Assembly: GCA_963825455.1 (NCBI GenBank)
Contig: CAWGTG010000001.1
Coordinates: forward strand, 84,284-148,283
Source: an uncultured Actinomycetota bacterium
Lineage (GTDB): Bacteria > Actinomycetota > Actinomycetes > Propionibacteriales > Nocardioidaceae
Direction: 5' to 3'
Length of the DNA: 64,000 nt
Position 1 is the stretch's first letter. Each line of letters opens with the position of its first letter. Shown piece after piece: positions 20,132 to 32,892 of this stretch. The notes beneath the pieces were generated by a model. That model searched no databases and had not been told where the DNA came from. It saw only the letters and a program-made list of their open reading frames with translations. The translations under genes and the position numbers were made by a program.

Positions 20132-21255
20132 ATGCCGAGGAGCGTGATGTGGTTCCGGCGCGACCTGCGCCTCGGCGACAACCCGGCGCTCCTCGAGGCC
20201 GTCGCCAACGGCCCGGTACTCCCTCTGTTCGTGCTCGACCCGGCGCTCTGGGGGCCGGCCGGGCCGTCCCGCCGCGCCTACCTCGGCGCCTCCCTGCGCG
20301 CGCTCGATGGCGAGCTGCGGCGCCGGAAGACCCGGCTCAGCGTGGTGCGTGGACAACCGGTACGCCGGGTGGTGCTGGCCGCCAGGACGGTCGGCGCCGA
20401 GCGGGTCCACGCGGCCGCCGACTTCGGTCCCTACGGGCACCAGCGGGACCTCGAGGTGGAGAAGGCCCTGGCCGACGCCGGCATCGAGCTCGTCCGCAGC
20501 GGGTCGTCGTACGCCGTCGCGCCCGGGCGGGTGACCAACCGATCGGGTGACCCGTACAAGGTCTACACGCCGTTCAGCAAGGCGTGGTCGGACCACGGGT
20601 GGCTCGGCCCGGTCGACCCGCCGACCGGCGCGAGCTGGCTCGCAAGCGCAGCGCCGGCGCGGCGACCTACCGCAAGGAGCTCGCGTGGCGCGAGTTCTAC
20701 GCCGACGTGTTGTTCCACCAGCCGCGGACCGCGCGCGAGTACCTCCGGCCGGAGTTCGCGCGGATGCCCTACGACCCGCCGGGAGACCAGCTGGAGGCGT
20801 GGCAGGAGGGGCGCACCGGCTTCCCCGTCGTGGACGCGGGCATGCGCCAGCTCCGCGCGACCGGCTGGATGCACAACCGGGTCCGGATGGTGGCGGCCAG
20901 CTTCCTGGTCAAGGACCTGCACGTGGAGTGGCAGCACGGCGCCCGGCACTTCATGCGGTGGCTGGTCGACGGCGACCTCGCCTCCAACCAGCACGGCTGG
21001 CAGTGGACCGCGGGCTGCGGCACCGACGCGGCGCCGTACTTCCGCGTCTTCAACCCGACCACCCAGGGCAGGAAGTTCGACCCCGACGGCCGCTACGTCC
21101 GGCAGTGGGTCGAGGAGCTGCGCGACCCGGACCGGGTGCCCGACCCCCACGGCCCCGACACGGAGACCCGCGACCTCGTCGGCTACCCGGGACCGATCGT
21201 CGACCACGCGCAGGAGCGGCAGGAGGCGCTCGACCGGTGGCAGGCCATTCGCTGA
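20132..21255 (+). pseudogene. phrB: CPD photolyase with an internal out-of-frame deletion at about 20635
   Basis: N-half WFRRDLRLGDNPAL...YKVYTPF; C-half ELAWREFY, GRTGFPVVDAGMRQL, GWMHNRVRM in another frame; TSxLSxxL segment absent. Confidence 0.8.
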
Positions 21256-21322
21256 CTTTGGTCAATACGACGTCGACCGCCGTCGGTTCCGGCAGCCAGG
21301 CGGCGTTCCTAGCGTCAGCGGC

Positions 21323-22315
21323 ATGCGCACGCGCTGGCTCCCGGTCCTCGCCCTCGCCGTCCTGGCGCCGGTGTGCGCGGAGTATCTCTGGGGCTACGAC
21401 GACTCCACCGGCCACCCCGGCACGCTCGTCGGGAACCTCATCATCTTCACGCCGCTCTACGGCTGCCCGGCGCTGCTCATCCGCGAGATGGCCCGCCGCC
21501 GCGGGCTGGGCTGGCCCGGGATCGTCTTGCTGGCCGCGGCGTTCGGCGTGGTCGAGGCGGGGCTGGTTGACCAGTCGATGTTCAGCCGCGACTACCGCGA
21601 CATCCCCTACTGGCACGACATCGCCGACCCGACGTACGTCGCGCCGATCGGGCTGAGCATCTTCCTGGCGGTCTCGTTCGTGGCCAACCACGTGATCGCG
21701 AGCGTGGCCGGGCCGATCGCGCTGGTCGAGGGCCTGGCCCGCCGGCGTCCGCGGGAGCCCTGGCTCGGTCGCCCGATGATCGTGGTCGCGACGCTGCTCT
21801 ACCTCGGCGCCTGCGCACTGGTGTACGCCGACATGCTGGACACGGAGGGCAGCATCGCCTCCCCCGGGCAGCTGGTGGGGGCGGGCGCCGCGGCGGCGCT
21901 GCTGGTCGCGGGCGCCCTGCTGAGTGGCCGACGGCCTCGCACCCAGCGTGCGGGGGCAACGCCGAGCCCCTGGCTGGTCGGGTCGGTCGCGTTCGTCGTG
22001 GGTCTCGGCTCGCAGACCTTGCCGCCGTCGCCGCTTGGGACCGACGTCCTGCTGACGATCTACGGGACGGCAGCCGCCGCCATCTGGTGGCTCTCCGGCC
22101 GGCCCGGCTGGGACCGCGCGCACGCCGCGGCGGTCGCGGTCGGCGCGTTGAGCGCGTTCGGGATCGGGGCCTTCTGGACCGACCCCATCGGCCAGGTCAC
22201 CGACGCCGAGAAGCTCGGCCACAACGTCGCCCTGCTCGTCCTCGTCAGCCTCGTCGGCGTTCTGGCGGTACGCAGGGGCGACAGTCGCAGGCAGCGCGTT
22301 AGCGTGGCGGCGTGA
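21323..22315 (+). CDS. multi-pass membrane protein of unknown function
   Basis: About 9 hydrophobic segments; LYGCPALLIRE and FGVVEAGLVDQS; TAGCGT -10, leaderless. Confidence 0.8.
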   Translation: MRTRWLPVLALAVLAPVCAEYLWGYDDSTGHPGTLVGNLIIFTPLYGCPALLIREMARRRGLGWPGIVLLAAAFGVVEAGLVDQSMFSRDYRDIPYWHDIADPTYVAPIGLSIFLAVSFVANHVIASVAGPIALVEGLARRRPREPWLGRPMIVVATLLYLGACALVYADMLDTEGSIASPGQLVGAGAAAALLVAGALLSGRRPRTQRAGATPSPWLVGSVAFVVGLGSQTLPPSPLGTDVLLTIYGTAAAAIWWLSGRPGWDRAHAAAVAVGALSAFGIGAFWTDPIGQVTDAEKLGHNVALLVLVSLVGVLAVRRGDSRRQRVSVAA

Positions 22316-26976: not shown

Positions 26977-27564
26977 GTGACCAAGGGCGAGGAGACCAGG
27001 GCGGCGATCCTCGATGCCGCTGTGGCGATCGCCTCCGAGGTCGGGTTCACCGGGCTCACCATCGGCCAGCTCGCCGAGCACACGGGGATGAGCAAGAGCG
27101 GGCTGTTCGCGCACTTCAGGTCCAAGGAAGCGATGCAGCTCGAGACGCTCGAGTGGGCCCGCGAGCGGTTCACCGACCTCGTCATCCGGCCGACGCTCGC
27201 CGCGCCCCGGGGAGAGACGCGGGTCCGGGCCCTCTTCGACCGGTGGCTCGACTGGGAGACCCAGGCTCTTCAGGGCGGCTGCATCTTCGTGACAGCGTCG
27301 GCCGAGTTCGACGACCAACCGGGCGCCATGCGGGACGCCGTGGTGCGCAGCCAGCAGGACTGGATGGAGTTCGTCGCCACGGTGGCCGGCACTGCCGTGA
27401 CCGACGGTGACTTCAGGGCCGATCTCGACACCGAGCAGCTGGCCTTCACGCTCCAGGGCCTGATGCTCGGCTACCACCACGCCGCCCGGCTGATGCGCGA
27501 CCCGAAGGCACGCGAACACACCCGGCAGGCCCTCGACCAGCTGCTCGCGGCCAGCGCCGCCTGA
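26977..27564 (+). CDS. TetR-family regulator
   Basis: GLTIGQLAEHTGMSKSGLFAHFRSKE HTH; GGCIF motif. Confidence 0.93.
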   Translation: MTKGEETRAAILDAAVAIASEVGFTGLTIGQLAEHTGMSKSGLFAHFRSKEAMQLETLEWARERFTDLVIRPTLAAPRGETRVRALFDRWLDWETQALQGGCIFVTASAEFDDQPGAMRDAVVRSQQDWMEFVATVAGTAVTDGDFRADLDTEQLAFTLQGLMLGYHHAARLMRDPKAREHTRQALDQLLAASAA

Positions 27565-27587
27565 CCACACGACAAGGGAGACACCCC

Positions 27588-28484
27588 ATGGCATCACTGC
27601 GGAAAAGCACGATCGTTCGTTCTCGGAACCGGCTCATGCGGGCCTGGTTCGAGTACGCCGACTACGCGGCGCCCCGGCGCGCCGGGCGGGCGGCCTGCGA
27701 CCTGTGGTTCACGGCCCCGCCGCGGATGGCGGACGTGGAGCTGCCGGGCGGAGGTGCGGCGTTCGAGGTCGTGGCGCAGGGTCACCCCGTCCGCGGGTTC
27801 GTCTGGGGCGACGCGGCACACCCATCCACGACCGTCTACCTCGTGCACGGCTGGGGAGGTCGCGGCGCGCAGTTCGCCGCGATGGTGCCGCCCCTCCTGG
27901 AGGCCGGCCACCGCGTGGTCATGTTCGACGCACCGGCCCATGGTGACTCCGACCACGGACCAGCCGGACCGGGGCGGACCAACGGGGTGGAGTTCGCCAA
28001 GGCACTGGACGCCGTCTTCTGCCGGTTCGGGCCGGCCGAGGCGGTCGTGGCGCACTCGATGGGCACCATCTCGACCTACCTGGCGATGCGCTACGGGTGG
28101 CTCGGGGCAGCGCGCCTGGTGTTCATCGCACCCATGGTCGAGTCCGAGTCGTTGTTCGACCAGTTCCAGCGGGCGCTGGGTTTCGGCCCTCGCGTCCGGG
28201 CAGCGTTCGACCAAGCGGTCGACGAGTTCGTCGGCGTGGGGGTGCGCGAGTTCGACGCCCGCGTCCAGGCCCGGCACGTCGACGCGCTGCCCACACTGGT
28301 GATCACCGACCGTGGCGACCGGCAGACGGCGTACGCCGACGTGGTCGACTTCGCGGAGTCGATCAAAGCGCGGCTGGTCACGACCGACGGACTGGGGCAT
28401 CGCAAGATCCTGCGCGACCCGGCCGTCGTGGAGCGGGTGGTCGAGTTCGTCTGCCGCGACCGCGAGCTCGGCCGGACGGCCTAG
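27588..28484 (+). CDS. alpha/beta hydrolase
   Basis: LVHGWGG, FDAPAHG, AHSMG nucleophile elbow, GLGHRKIL. Confidence 0.9.
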   Translation: MASLRKSTIVRSRNRLMRAWFEYADYAAPRRAGRAACDLWFTAPPRMADVELPGGGAAFEVVAQGHPVRGFVWGDAAHPSTTVYLVHGWGGRGAQFAAMVPPLLEAGHRVVMFDAPAHGDSDHGPAGPGRTNGVEFAKALDAVFCRFGPAEAVVAHSMGTISTYLAMRYGWLGAARLVFIAPMVESESLFDQFQRALGFGPRVRAAFDQAVDEFVGVGVREFDARVQARHVDALPTLVITDRGDRQTAYADVVDFAESIKARLVTTDGLGHRKILRDPAVVERVVEFVCRDRELGRTA

Positions 28485-28489
28485 GCACA

Positions 28490-28692
28490 CATGCAGCAAC
28501 CCGCAGGCGTGGCCCCTGTGGAGGGGCCGCACCGGGGGACGTTCCCGGTTCGCCTGCGGGTCGGACAGCTGCTTTGGATTCGCCAGCAGCTCAGCGGACG
28601 ATTCCATCCGCCGTGTTGCTGGGGCTGCTAGCGGGCAGCCACCTCACGCGTCCTCAAAGAATTCATTCTTCGGACCACCTCCTTTCCCGTGT
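28490..28692 (-). ncRNA. candidate structured small RNA carrying an extended Shine-Dalgarno and a 12-codon ORF
   Basis: Own promoter; hairpins at 28623-28640, 28594-28611 and 28567-28591; three-way junction 28498-28562; no downstream gene on this strand; ends are inferred. Confidence 0.6.
28628..28666 (-). CDS. 12-aa micro-ORF MNSLRTREVAAR
   Basis: ATG AAT TCT TTG AGG ACG CGT GAG GTG GCT GCC CGC TAG, preceded by GAAAGGAGGTGGTCCGAAGA. Confidence 0.5.
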   Translation of the reverse strand: MNSLRTREVAAR

Positions 28693-28698
28693 ACGACG

Positions 28699-28727
28699 AG
28701 CGTAGGTCGCTCGGTCAAGAGCGGCAA
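28699..28727 (-). promoter_or_regulatory. sigma-70/SigA-type promoter of the candidate small RNA
   Basis: TTGCCG (28727-28722), 17-nt spacer, TACGCT (28704-28699). Confidence 0.6.
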
Positions 28728-28731
28728 CGGC

Positions 28732-30135
28732 TTATCCGGCGTCGCGGAGGGCCTCGACGGGAGCAACGGCGACCGCTCGGGACGACGGGACCCACGACGC
28801 GGCGAGGACCAGCAGCACGCCCGCCACCGCCACGGCGACGAGGACGACCCCCGGGACGCCCCAGACGAAGCCGTCGTTGCGGAACCCGATGAGCGACTGG
28901 GCGCCGAGTGCGCCGTACGTCAGACCGAGGACCATCCCGAAGCAGACGGCCGTGGCCGAGAGAGCGACCGACTCCTTGGTGATCATCGTGCGCACCTGGC
29001 CGGCGGTGAAGCCGAGCGCCCGTAGCAGCCCGATCTCCCGCGTGCGCTGGATGACGCCCAGCGACATGGTGCTCACGAACCCGACGGCGGCGATCAGGGA
29101 AGAGACCACCACGACGCCGATCATGACCGCGGAGACGTTGCGCAGGATGTCGTCCGCCTGAGCGGCCTCGGTCGGGGTCAGGTCCCACGAGTCCGACGCG
29201 CTGCGCAGGGCCGCGAAGCCGGCGGCGAACGTCGTCACCAGCGTCACCCCTATGACGAGTCCCATCGTCGAGCGCGTGGTGCGCCCTGGGTCCCGCACCG
29301 CGTTGCGCGCCGCCACCTTGCTCGGCGGGTCGCTGCCGAGCAGCCGGCTGGCCGCCGCGACCAGGCGGGGCACGACGAGCCGGGCGCCGACCAGCAAGCC
29401 GGTTCCGGAGAGCATCGCGCCCAGTGCGGCCGCCAGGAAGCCGATGGCGCTCCCGGACTCTCCGAGGGCGGCCGCGCCGGCGAGCACGACGGCACCGGCC
29501 ACGATGAGGAAGGCCGTGGCCAGTCGCCGGAGCCGGCTCGTGCGCGGGGTCTGCGGCGAGGGCACGGCGGCACCGGACAGCGCCTGTGCCGGGGTGGCGC
29601 GCAGCACGGCGCGCGAACCGACCCAGGCGGCGCCCGCCGCCGCGAGCGTCACCACCACCGCGGCCGGCGCCGCGAGCACCGGGAACTGCGAGTAGTCCCC
29701 GTCGGGCAGGCGGTCGGCCGCCACGAGCGCTGCGCGGGTGATGTCCCCGGTCAGCACGCCGAGCAGCACGCCGACGACGACGCCGATCGCCGCGACGACC
29801 GTGGTGCCGCGGACCACCGCCCGGCGGAGCGTTCGGGCATCCGCACCCAACAGCCTCAGCAGCGCGATCTGGCGCAGCCGCCCGGCGATGACCGTGTCCA
29901 CGCCGTTGACGATGACGACGGCGGAGACGTAGACGGCGACCGCGATGAAGACCGAGGCGACGACCCCCAGCACGACCCCCACGGCGCTGATGTCGCCGGC
30001 CTGATCCGAGTTCACCCTCAGGATGTCGCTGCCCACGAGCAGGGCGCCGGCGTAGAAGCCGCACATCGCGGCCACGAGCGCAACGGTCCCGAGCTCCCGC
30101 CGGGCGCCGAGCACGAGATCGCTGCGGGCACTCAT
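28732..30135 (-). CDS. FtsX-like ABC transporter permease
   Basis: RLRQIALLRLLGA and QRTREIGLLRALGF motifs, multiple TM segments. Confidence 0.9.
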   Translation of the reverse strand: MSARSDLVLGARRELGTVALVAAMCGFYAGALLVGSDILRVNSDQAGDISAVGVVLGVVASVFIAVAVYVSAVVIVNGVDTVIAGRLRQIALLRLLGADARTLRRAVVRGTTVVAAIGVVVGVLLGVLTGDITRAALVAADRLPDGDYSQFPVLAAPAAVVVTLAAAGAAWVGSRAVLRATPAQALSGAAVPSPQTPRTSRLRRLATAFLIVAGAVVLAGAAALGESGSAIGFLAAALGAMLSGTGLLVGARLVVPRLVAAASRLLGSDPPSKVAARNAVRDPGRTTRSTMGLVIGVTLVTTFAAGFAALRSASDSWDLTPTEAAQADDILRNVSAVMIGVVVVSSLIAAVGFVSTMSLGVIQRTREIGLLRALGFTAGQVRTMITKESVALSATAVCFGMVLGLTYGALGAQSLIGFRNDGFVWGVPGVVLVAVAVAGVLLVLAASWVPSSRAVAVAPVEALRDAG

Positions 30136-30887
30136 GCGACGCCAGCTTCGAAGCCGATGAGCAGCTCGGCGATCTGCTGCGGCGACATCGCGGCGTGATC
30201 GCCGACCAGCCGGCCGTCCGCGAGCACGAGCACGCGGTCGGCGTACGACGCCGCCACCGGGTCGTGGCTGACCATGACGATGGTCTGGCCGTACTCGCGG
30301 GCGGCCGTGCGGAGCAGCCCGAGCACCTCGCGGGAGCTGCGGGTGTCGAGGTTGCCCGTCGGTTCGTCGGCCAGCACGACCGCCGGCCGCGGGGCCAGCG
30401 CACGTGCGATCGCGACCCGCTGCTGCTGTCCGCCGGAGAGCTCGCCGGGCCGGTGGTCCACCCGGTTGGCCAGGCCGAGCACGTCGACGAGGTGGTCGAC
30501 CCAGGCGCGCTCCTCGGCCGACAGCCGGCGGCCGGCCAGCTCGAACGGGAGCAGCACGTTCTCCAGCACGTCGAGGGTCGGCACCAGGTTGTAGGACTGG
30601 AAGACGAACCCCACGTGCACGCGGCGCAGGAGGGTCCGGGCCCGGTCGTCCATGCGGTGCAACGGCTGGCCGGCGACGTGGACCTCCCCGGCGGTGACGT
30701 CGTCCAGCCCCGCCGCGACGTTCATGAACGTCGACTTGCCCGAGCCGGACGGGCCCATCACGGCGGTGAAGCCGCCGCGCGGCACGACGACGGTCACGTC
30801 GTCGAGGGCACGCACCTCGCCGGCGCCCCGGCCGTAGACCTTGCTGACCGAGTGGAACGAGACGACGGAGTCGACAGGGGATCCCAT
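30132..30887 (-). CDS. ABC transporter ATP-binding protein (LolD/MacB-like)
   Basis: GPSGSGKS, LSGGQQQR and ADEPTGNLD motifs. Confidence 0.95.
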   Translation of the reverse strand: MGSPVDSVVSFHSVSKVYGRGAGEVRALDDVTVVVPRGGFTAVMGPSGSGKSTFMNVAAGLDDVTAGEVHVAGQPLHRMDDRARTLLRRVHVGFVFQSYNLVPTLDVLENVLLPFELAGRRLSAEERAWVDHLVDVLGLANRVDHRPGELSGGQQQRVAIARALAPRPAVVLADEPTGNLDTRSSREVLGLLRTAAREYGQTIVMVSHDPVAASYADRVLVLADGRLVGDHAAMSPQQIAELLIGFEAGVA

Positions 30888-30945
30888 GCCCTCGACGCTA
30901 GGAGCGCGGGCGCGGGGGCACATCGGCCGCGAGCGGGGTCTTGCC

Positions 30946-30961
30946 TACATCGCAGGATGTA
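30946..30961. promoter_or_regulatory. inverted repeat, probable NarL-type response regulator site
   Basis: TACATC-GCAG-GATGTA upstream of the ABC operon promoter, next to the two-component genes. Confidence 0.55.
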
Positions 30962-31002
30962 CTTGCGGCGGCTGGGATGCCTCGCCCGGGACATTTCCAC
31001 CA

Positions 31003-31117
31003 GGCGGATCGCGAGCGGAGCTCGCGCCCCCCGCGAGTCGACCTCGCGCCCGTGACGACGGCGAAGCGGGCGAGCGAAGCTCGCGTCGTCACGGGGTGGG
31101 GTCGAAATTTGCGGGGG
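31003..31117. repeat. intergenic palindromic element, family A
   Basis: GGCGGATCGCGAGCGGAGCTCGCG and CCCGTGACGAC-GGCGAAGCGGGCGAGCGAAGCTCGC-GTCGTCACGGG hairpin. Confidence 0.65.
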
Positions 31118-31120
31118 TAT

Positions 31121-31765
31121 TCACAGCAGCCCGTGCTCGTAGGCGTAGACGACCAGCTGCACCCGGTCGCGCAGTCCGAGCTTGCCGAGGATCCGGGAGA
31201 CGTGGGTCTTCACCGTCGCCTCGGACAGGTGCTCGACGGCGGCGATCTCGGCGTTCGACAGCCCGCCGGCCGCGCGCAGCAGGATCTCCCGCTCGCGGGG
31301 AGTGAGCTGTTCGTACTCCGGGCCGGGGCCGCTGCGTGCCGAGCGGAACCGCTCCAGCATCGACCGGGTCGCCCCGGCGGCGACCACCTGGGAGCCGTCG
31401 GCGACGGCCCGGATCGCGGCGAGCAGCAGCTCGGGCCGGGCGTCCTTGAGCACGAACCCGCTCGCGCCGGCCTCGATCGCCGACACCGCGGCCTCGTCGA
31501 AGTCGAAGGTGGTGAGCACCAGCACCCGCGGCGCCTCGTCGCCGAGCCGGTCGTGCAGCAGACGGGTCGCCGTAACGCCGTCCACCCGGGACATCCGGAC
31601 GTCCATGACGACGACGTCCGGCCGGGACTGCGCGACCAGCCCGGGCACCTGGTCGCCGTCGTCTGCCTGCCCGACCACCTCGAGGTCGGGCTGGCTGTCC
31701 AGCACCATCGCGATGCCGGCGCGGAACATGGCCTGGTCGTCGACCAGCGCGACGCGGACCGTCAC
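31121..31765 (-). CDS. NarL/LuxR-family response regulator
   Basis: ALVDDQ, PDVVVMDVRM, LTPREREIL and TVKTHVSRILGKL motifs. Confidence 0.95.
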   Translation of the reverse strand: MTVRVALVDDQAMFRAGIAMVLDSQPDLEVVGQADDGDQVPGLVAQSRPDVVVMDVRMSRVDGVTATRLLHDRLGDEAPRVLVLTTFDFDEAAVSAIEAGASGFVLKDARPELLLAAIRAVADGSQVVAAGATRSMLERFRSARSGPGPEYEQLTPREREILLRAAGGLSNAEIAAVEHLSEATVKTHVSRILGKLGLRDRVQLVVYAYEHGLL

Positions 31766-32892
31766 GCGGCCGGCTCCGGGAGCTCGGCGCACACCGTCCA
31801 GGTGACGCCGTACACCCCGGCCTCGAACGTGCCGCCGGCCGCGGCCACCCGGTCTCGCATCCCCGCCAGCCCGTGGCCGGTGCCCGGACCGGTCGAGGAG
31901 CCTCGCACCCGGTTGCGCACGACCAGACGGTAGCCGTCGCGCCAGTCCTCCTCGACCTCGACCGGGTGCGCCAGGTCGCCGTGCTTGAGGGCGTTGGTCA
32001 GCGATTCCGCCAGCAGCCGCTGGGCAGCCACCGCGAGCAGCCCGGACGTCGAAGGATCGCCGTGCTCGACCAGCTGTACCTGCATCCCCGAGGCACGGAT
32101 CCGCTCGACGAGGGCGTCGCGGGAACCCCTGCCGGGTGGGGTCGCGGGCTCCTGGTAGCGCAGCTCGGCGAGAAGGTCGCGCAGGTCGGCGATGGAGCCG
32201 CGCGCTGTGTCCGCGATGACGTCGAGCGCCTTCGCCGCCTTGCGGTCACCCTCGGGACCGTCGAGTGCGTAGCGAGCGCCGTCAGCCTGGGCCGCCACCA
32301 CCGCCCACGTGTGGGCGACCAGGTCGTGCATGTCGGCGGCGATCCGGGTCCGCTCCTGCTCGAGCCCCGCCTGCACCTGGGCGGTGATGCGAGCCCGGCT
32401 CTGCCAGCGCACGTAGCCGGCCGCCCAGCCGCCACCGGCGACCAGGGCCGCCAACGACGCCGAACCCGCGACAGCGAAGGCGACCGAGACACCGCTCACC
32501 GCGTCGACCCCGTCGACGCCGACCATCGTGGCCAGCACGGCGGCCGACCCCAGCGCGCCGACCAGCCCGAAGCGGCGGACCGCGGCTCGCGGATGCGCGC
32601 CCAGGACGAAGAACACGCCCGCGTAGCCAAGGTCAGCGAGCAGGACCAGCTCCCCGCCCACCAGCTGGCACCCGCCGGCCCCGGCCGCCAGCACAACCAT
32701 GGCCGGCCACGACAGGCGGCGTACGGCGAGCGCGAGACCCATCGTCAGCGTGCCCACGATGGCCGGCACGGACTGCTGGATGGCAGGAAGGATGGCGAGC
32801 AGCGTGAAGCCACCGGCAGCGAGGACGTCGAACAGCAGCTGCCGCGGCCTCGGCCGGGCACCCTCGCCCCAGAGATCCTGCGGGTCCTGCAC
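31762..32892 (-). CDS. HisKA_3 sensor histidine kinase
   Basis: ERTRIAADMHDLVAH, ESLTNALKHG and GHGLAGMRDR motifs. Confidence 0.93.
   Translation of the reverse strand: MQDPQDLWGEGARPRPRQLLFDVLAAGGFTLLAILPAIQQSVPAIVGTLTMGLALAVRRLSWPAMVVLAAGAGGCQLVGGELVLLADLGYAGVFFVLGAHPRAAVRRFGLVGALGSAAVLATMVGVDGVDAVSGVSVAFAVAGSASLAALVAGGGWAAGYVRWQSRARITAQVQAGLEQERTRIAADMHDLVAHTWAVVAAQADGARYALDGPEGDRKAAKALDVIADTARGSIADLRDLLAELRYQEPATPPGRGSRDALVERIRASGMQVQLVEHGDPSTSGLLAVAAQRLLAESLTNALKHGDLAHPVEVEEDWRDGYRLVVRNRVRGSSTGPGTGHGLAGMRDRVAAAGGTFEAGVYGVTWTVCAELPEPAA

Follow-up and report, generated by a model that had tools for sequence, protein, structure and literature searches.

The window, by which we mean the whole 64,000-nucleotide stretch analysed, carries on its minus strand an intergenic RNA gene of about 200 nt, which has a predicted promoter and a hairpin domain at its 3′ end and is set between two protein-coding genes:

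27588–28484, plus strand: alpha/beta hydrolase, convergent neighbour (context)
28491–28692, minus strand: Ms_IGR-5 RNA, full-model Rfam match; probable 5′ end at 28692–28694, probable 3′ end near 28491–28495
28699–28704, minus strand: predicted −10 element TACGCT
28722–28727, minus strand: predicted −35 element TTGCCG
28732–30135, minus strand: FtsX-like ABC permease, upstream neighbour, which stops just short of the −35 element (context)

The RNA scores 120.9 bits against the covariance model of RF02471 (Ms_IGR-5), for which the gathering cut-off is 45 (model positions 1–184, E 3.3e-28). Only two chance matches, with E up to 10, were returned elsewhere, and the Rfam scan gave no match at the locus to the tmRNA, 6C, Ms1 or riboswitch models, in keeping with the original prediction, which had been made from the sequence before any database search. 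Its suggestion of novelty survives in part: the strong RF02471 match makes the RNA a new copy of a catalogued family and the locus itself is not new, whereas no function for the family was found in the literature searched. Every element that had been named on the minus strand was found in its place.

The flanking blocks differ between related genomes. Here, 26977–28484 (TetR and hydrolase) and 28732–32892 (ABC permease and two-component genes) lie on either side of the RNA, and in several same-genus genomes the immediate neighbours of the RNA are an ABC transporter on one side and an MFS/MarR pair on the other, from which these blocks separate it in the window. Farther off, a 727-aa ORF (20132–22315, plus strand), the N-terminus of which we take to resemble DNA photolyase, loses its frame near residue 170 and has a membrane-protein end, likely as the result of a frameshift or an assembly error. 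A cis-acting leader or attenuator of a neighbouring gene would suit the leader-peptide-like anatomy and the terminator-like 3′ end. However, the neighbour is convergent here, and across 217 loci the downstream ORF, as found by a crude caller, is opposite in 112, on the same strand in 92 and uncalled in 13, with varying gene identity, so that no conserved co-oriented downstream gene was found; the Streptomyces avermitilis copy, moreover, is an sRNA transcription unit of its own (PMC8780764). This variation in neighbours and downstream orientation argues that the RNA is not a leader, as had been predicted from the convergent gene, and we consider the leader explanation extremely improbable.

The predicted promoter is present as originally described, the two hexamers (28727–28722 and 28704–28699) being separated by a 17-nt spacer. 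Scans for the sigma-70 promoter and terminator consensus returned nothing at the locus, and the promoter call therefore rests on conservation: TANNNT is found in 138 of 139 homologs and TTG at a spacer of 17–18 nt in 105 of 139, against random-site backgrounds of 0.25% and 0.03%, respectively. In M. abscessus, the transcription start site lies 2 nt ahead of the Rfam start (PMC4974804, suppl. 2). Contigs of relatives were also seen to pile on 28511–28698, in one run more than 1,500-fold deep against less than 12 on the flanks, and one relative's contig has an adapter junction at 28693 (less than 0.2 of the words were present in any of the 24 sequencing runs, of which four were aligned at 85% likeness). 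This pile-up was rejected as evidence of expression, as its source is relatives and adapter junctions are also internal; the depth was discounted too, since a conserved RNA gathers contigs where variable flanks cannot.

The 5′ part of the RNA carries two Shine–Dalgarno (SD) elements, termed here SD1 and SD2, and a short reading frame:

28672–28687, minus strand: SD1, a 16-nt complement of the 16S 3′ tail with two G-U pairs
28686–28672, minus strand: GAAAGGAGGTGGTCC, the 15-nt stretch named in the original prediction
28628–28666, minus strand: 12-codon ORF MNSLRTREVAAR with its stop codon; codons 2–4 are AU-rich
28640–28645, minus strand: SD2, an internal GAGGUG at codons 8–9, placed 9 nt ahead of the stop and sharing the 5′ strand of helix P2

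The complementarity to the 16S tail, first noted over 15 nt, holds and extends to 16 nt. The assembly of this genome lacks the 16S gene, so the tail, with its presumed mature 3′ end, was taken from three same-genus genomes that are complete or nearly so. Among the 15,844 GGAGG sites of the 5.0-Mb genome the locus is the only one with a 16-nt pairing to this tail, the next best having 14, and its duplex energy is the best in the genome (−27.8 kcal/mol, compared with −24.5 for the next and a median of −11.9). We compared 139 homologs, out of 152 genomes with a model match, 13 being left out, two of them flagged as unpublished; these homologs are related, and the counts given here overstate their independence. 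The pairing spans 15–16 nt in 137 of the 139, and its variation is almost solely G-U wobble. Where the 16S base is C or A, the position never varies; opposite U only A and G occur, opposite G the variation is between C and T, and mismatched cells number four over the 15 core positions. Such a pattern of substitutions is as expected for pairing to an unchanging RNA, and it bears out the idea of an RNA that engages the 16S tail; SD1, which sits about 6 nt from the RNA 5′ end, would thus capture the 30S subunit. One position opposite a 16S U prefers G over A (126 versus 12), which fits a second role, as GGAY in the ORF is an alternative partner for the RUCC tail of SD1 (helix P1, the first helix of the Rfam model).

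The 12-codon ORF was found at 28666–28628 as predicted, and the conservation of its frame, which had been proposed as a check, is evident. GGAY is preceded by ATG, TTG or GTG at exactly 13 nt in 131 of the 139 homologs; of the eight exceptions seven have their start one or two codons further upstream in the same frame, and the last (L217) offers a TTG out of frame or an ATT in frame. Every one of the 139 stops at codon 13 (TAG 123, TGA 13, TAA 3), and none has an internal stop. The ORF ranges overall from 11 to 16 codons and its frame survives indels; in other Actinomycetota classes (52 loci) and metagenomes (55 loci) it has 12–16 codons, and the start-to-pseudoknot distance in these other lineages changes by whole codons. 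An in-frame first NTG occurs in 46 of the 52 other-class loci and in 44 of the 53 metagenome loci with the usual stop (90 of 105 together), the remaining 15 having an in-frame ACG or ATC 2 nt past the SD. Codons 2–4 have a GC content of 32%, against 71% for the loci. Entire lineages (L281, L283, L285, L286, L304, L306, L318, L325, L332, L343, L344, L369, L371–L383 and L395–L397) have a CUG, ACG or AUC start placed exactly 2 nt past the extended SD, as if sensitivity to initiation fidelity (IF3) were tolerated or wanted.

These features bear on two explanations that the original prediction had offered. If the functional unit were the peptide of 12 residues, or a REVAxR arrest motif in the nascent chain, the invariance of E8 and V9 would follow, as would the use of both TCN and AGY codons for Ser 3 (71 of 139). 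Yet E8 is always GAG and V9 always GTG, with no synonymous change in 139 of 139 homologs; the tail of the peptide takes the form of 62 different C-terminal tripeptides, and position 5 can be R, W or G so long as GG is kept. In L300, a single metagenome contig, two compensating frameshifts cause the core to be read in another frame as VHRYGLSDCGGGCS, and the ORF still closes with the usual UAG, which lies 8 nt past GAGGUG. Amino-acid conservation accompanied by synonymous variation, the mark of a micropeptide, was not found, and a peptide function appears very unlikely. The other explanation was an untranslated 30S trap or hibernation RNA, in which the 16-bp helix and the pseudoknot described below would lock initiation complexes. 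The locus does have the strongest SD in the genome, weak start codons are in use, and the pseudoknot begins at +14 in 131 of the 139 Actinomycetes homologs, presumably near the mRNA entry channel. However, selection on the frame and stop implies that ribosomes reach the stop, the start-to-pseudoknot distance varies by whole codons, and the level of the RNA in M. abscessus is low; a pure trap is thus disfavoured and seems to us highly improbable. The selection on frame and stop, supported by published Ribo-seq, instead shows at the level of sequence comparison that the ORF is translated; its peptide sequence is indifferent. Since frame, start and stop are conserved, the label of 'non-coding sRNA' given to Ms_IGR-5 is likely wrong.

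The position of the stop codon is set with respect to SD2. All three stop codons are used, and the distance from GAGGUG to the stop is exactly 9 nt in 370 of 372 loci, the two exceptions being homologs with 8 and 12 nt. The same spacing is found in 231 of 233 loci obtained with search patterns that did not include the stop, a set that leaves out five viral and five Zixibacteria or Acidobacteriota matches (coding-like, without leader or stop; 231 of 243 if kept), ten further pattern matches (two judged to be chance, eight from Actinomycetes) and duplicates. On a 72-taxon tree, the GGUG of SD2 has undergone no change, while the five P2 pairs beside it show 7, 0, 2, 1 and 5 double changes. An invariant GGUG amid changing P2 pairs points to a partner outside the RNA. 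When the stop occupies the A site, the end of GAGGUG would lie 6 nt ahead of the P-site codon, which is the ordinary SD-to-P-site distance, and its pairing with the 16S tail has a predicted energy of −10.6 kcal/mol. We infer that SD2 may make a second 16S contact at the stop; GAGGUG also takes part in P2, and its invariance could instead stem from a contact that is tertiary or made with a protein. The same spacing weighs on the notion of a structured non-coding RNA whose function resides in its folded body, the SD serving only as a 5′ stabiliser and the ORF as a safe ribosome exit. The proximity of SD1 to the 5′ end speaks for it, and ribosomes initiating at a strong SD are reported to block RNase J1 on the hbs mRNA (PMC5737220). 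Such an RNA would, however, have no need for a 16-nt invariant helix, a second SD or a stop at a fixed offset, and the ORF traverses the most conserved structure, which makes this explanation rather improbable.

The region as a whole folds better than expected (z −4.04; none of 200 shuffles was as good), and its conserved fold consists of the following parts:

28649–28653, minus strand: GGACG, 5′ strand of the pseudoknot, ORF positions +14 to +18; alternative partner is the SD1 tail 28675–28672 (P1)
28537–28541, minus strand: CGUCC, pseudoknot 3′ strand, located in the loop of P5
28564–28643, minus strand: P2 (28643–28635 with 28572–28564) and P3 (28633–28624 with 28590–28581)
28499–28561, minus strand: 3′ domain with P4 (28561–28551/28509–28499), P5 (28549–28531) and P6 (28528–28511)

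P2 and P3 bury codons 8–12 and the stop, and the inner hairpin (28613–28592) is variable. P4, which is the closing helix (28561–28551/28509–28499) of the original prediction, is 99% paired, with two-sided changes in eight of its ten pairs. The 3′ domain likely doubles as a terminator; in the non-actinobacterial copies it is followed by T-rich tails.

Covariation was assessed on alignment A1, which holds 72 of the 121 homologs, out of 139, that pass the anchor filter. A model of P2, P3, P4 and the pseudoknot is 91.8% paired on this alignment and shows 183 two-sided changes, beyond every one of 500 shuffles and all slid controls. In the pseudoknot, pair 4 occurs as C-G in 65 of the 72 sequences and as U-A in the other 7, with no exception and three changes on the tree, and pair 5 occurs as four pair types with about nine double changes and is broken in 18 of 72; the remaining three of the five pairs vary hardly or not at all and are hence little informative. 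None of 500 shuffles reached the pseudoknot covariation score. Covariation in these substitutions shows a pseudoknot between the ORF and the P5 loop, the conserved part of which is only NRUCC, covarying with GGAY, whereas the bases beyond it vary. Neither this pseudoknot nor an SD2 at a set distance from the stop figured in the original prediction. P1, the Rfam helix formed by the SD tail and GGAC, was rejected as the sole partner of GGAY: it is compatible with 67 of 72 sequences and has five A-C mismatches, against none for the pseudoknot, and its inner pairs are unconserved, for which reason we retain P1 as an alternative state only. Inspection by eye led us to drop a kink-turn at GUGAG, as its partner strand varies.

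The hairpin that had been placed over the stop codon fares less simply. It does appear in the predicted single-sequence fold of this copy, where its probability is 0.97–0.99 and that of P2/P3 is near 0 (the method scores no pseudoknots), but it is intact in only 15 of the 72 aligned homologs, with at least five of six pairs kept in 41, and the conserved fold is P2/P3. It may be a folding intermediate or an alternative state. Between P3 and P2, a GAAUCC bulge (28581–28576, minus strand) is semi-conserved, Zixibacteria carrying CAAUCC; no pairing partner was found for it, and it is possibly a triple-helix or protein site.

Ms_IGR-5 is widespread in Actinomycetes and extends beyond them. A single match per genome was found in 40 of 41 relatives and in 114 of 151 genomes of the class, a tally that includes G059 and G071, both flagged as unpublished, while 14 control genomes had none. 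Named matches include Mycobacterium, Streptomyces, Micromonospora, Rhodococcus, Kribbella and Nocardioides, and Corynebacterium, Bifidobacterium, Microbacterium, Arthrobacter and Actinomyces are not among the 120 named pattern matches. The ORF sequences nearest to that of the window belong to Nocardioides, which makes an origin of the window in that group likely. Small genomes often have no model match, one family with 1.5-Mb members giving 0 of 7; absence there and in the named genera is possibly loss or divergence. One genome, G661, holds two copies (G661:C17:3911–3954 and G661:C126:9406–9449), a doubling that could reflect bin contamination; every other true match is single. A strict pattern, whose misses do not mean absence, identified genuine copies in two further phyla: Zixibacteria, with 5 of 151 genomes, and the phylum holding Polarisedimenticolia, which we take to be Acidobacteriota, with 3 of 301. 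One of the three latter copies (L094 in G191) is unpublished, and those of G635 and G525 suffice without it. In both phyla the copies retain the promoter, SD1, the frame, the spacing from SD2 to the stop and a 3′ hairpin with a U tail. Those of Acidobacteriota retain the pseudoknot as well; the zixibacterial copies have a 6-bp P1 instead and, by eye, no clear loop partner. Five pattern matches on viral contigs, without stop or leader, were judged to be chance and are not counted as phage copies.

Published data support expression in several genera. The M. smegmatis RNA, IGR-5, is listed among validated RNAs that are uncharacterised, and is reported to start with A and to carry an NAD cap (bioRxiv 10.1101/2021.12.14.472595); it appears in a cold-stress transcriptome as ncMSMEG15794c (PMC10454040), and the S. 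lividans copy SLIV_16488 is validated by RNA-seq (PMC8079986); for S. coelicolor scr4389, identity with Ms_IGR-5 could not be established. In M. abscessus, ncMab10731 has 3737 RPKM in Ribo-seq against 70 in RNA-seq, and both its Ribo-seq value and its Ribo/RNA ratio are at the top of the 36 ncRNA rows in that table (PMC4974804, suppl. 2). However, several tRNAs in the same table exceed this ratio, and the authors of that study caution that RNPs give protected reads too (PMC4974804). The 70 RPKM compare with 79,735 for tmRNA (PMC4974804), a low level that argues against bulk ribosome sponging or titration in growing cells of that condition. No M. tuberculosis counterpart is described in the full-text literature searched. 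Within that literature, the family receives passing mentions with no function described, and the passages concerned report no extended SD, ORF, second SD, pseudoknot or copies outside Actinomycetota. The combination of extended SD, frame, SD2 and pseudoknot fits no mechanism that we found described.

Low abundance would suit a regulator acting in trans, that is, a dual-function sRNA, which the original prediction had also suggested, or a protein-binding RNA, gated by translation. Passage of a ribosome would open the fold, so that the RNA reports translation capacity, and the freed C-rich strands (the 3′ strand of P2 and the P5 loop) or the GAAUCC bulge would act on mRNAs or a protein. The interweaving of the ORF with the pseudoknot, P2 and P3 is in line with this idea, weak start codons could sense initiation-factor status, and the bulge is left without a partner in the RNA. 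Yet the conserved NRUCC is explained internally by its covariation with GGAY, and the fixed distance from GAGGUG to the stop finds no explanation, so that a trans regulator seems unlikely.

The reading that we favour, if tentatively and at somewhat short of even chances, is that of a translated mini-mRNA that catches a ribosome and has, as its working state, that ribosome held at its own stop codon. SD1 near the 5′ end would capture a 30S subunit and displace the weak P1, while GGAY would stay paired to the 3′ loop; the pairing is read from the substitution pattern, and the binding would follow from it. The ribosome would then start, often at a weak UUG, CUG, ACG or AUC, and presumably open up P2, P3 and the pseudoknot. 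The observed geometry is such that, once the stop occupies the A site, the freed GAGGUG may be gripped again by the 16S tail, so that termination or recycling would be slowed. The held ribosome might in turn serve as a sensor or a buffer for free subunits and recycling; it might also set the fold and lifetime of the RNA. Observations that count against such parking include the preference of the single-sequence fold for the stop hairpin, the low RNA level and the higher tRNA ratios in M. abscessus, the breaks in the fifth pseudoknot pair, the two departures from the 9-nt spacing and the lack of an obvious pseudoknot partner in the zixibacterial copies. A bolder version, which we put forward as possible though somewhat unlikely, is that Ms_IGR-5 is a dedicated, multi-phylum and peptide-indifferent ribosome-handling RNA, a counterpart of tmRNA, that grips the 16S tail at both initiation and termination, its pseudoknot re-forming behind the ribosome, and that it stores or senses post-termination ribosomes.

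Ms_IGR-5 is thus single-copy in most Actinomycetes genomes sampled and present in unrelated phyla, yet it is filed as non-coding, and it is under selection for translation to a stop set exactly behind a second Shine–Dalgarno element. If it does hold or sense ribosomes, it would represent a new kind of translation-control RNA, and it offers a natural test of whether SD–16S pairing acts on terminating ribosomes. Internal SDs are known to act on translating ribosomes in the SD-assisted recoding of prfB and dnaX; these, however, are recoding sites in long genes, whereas in Ms_IGR-5 nothing is translated downstream. With tmRNA, a single-copy pseudoknotted RNA with a short internal ORF that acts on ribosomes, Ms_IGR-5 shares the copy number, the pseudoknot and the short ORF, and probably the action on ribosomes, but it has no tRNA-like domain and no Rfam tmRNA match, and it carries its own SD and start codon. 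Leader-peptide attenuators likewise combine a short ORF overlapping alternative helices with a terminator-like hairpin; unlike them, Ms_IGR-5 has neither a conserved downstream gene nor an amino-acid-specific codon run. The existing description of RF02471, whose members include ncMSMEG15794c, ncMab10731 and SLIV_16488, agrees with the present locus in that the match is full-length, the RNA is intergenic and it is transcribed in several genera, and differs in that the Rfam entry and the literature passages treat the family as a non-coding actinobacterial sRNA, with a structure line in Rfam that lacks the pseudoknot. In B. subtilis, a strong 5′-proximal SD of the STAB-SD type similarly holds ribosomes and shields the hbs mRNA (PMC5737220), but these elements are on protein-coding mRNAs, without a mini-ORF in a pseudoknotted fold and without a second SD. 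The Rae1 targets spyA and bmrX are also small ORFs in which a fixed distance from an upstream element to the stop matters, and there spyA depends on its own peptide sequence (PMC12407103), whereas the peptide of Ms_IGR-5 varies.
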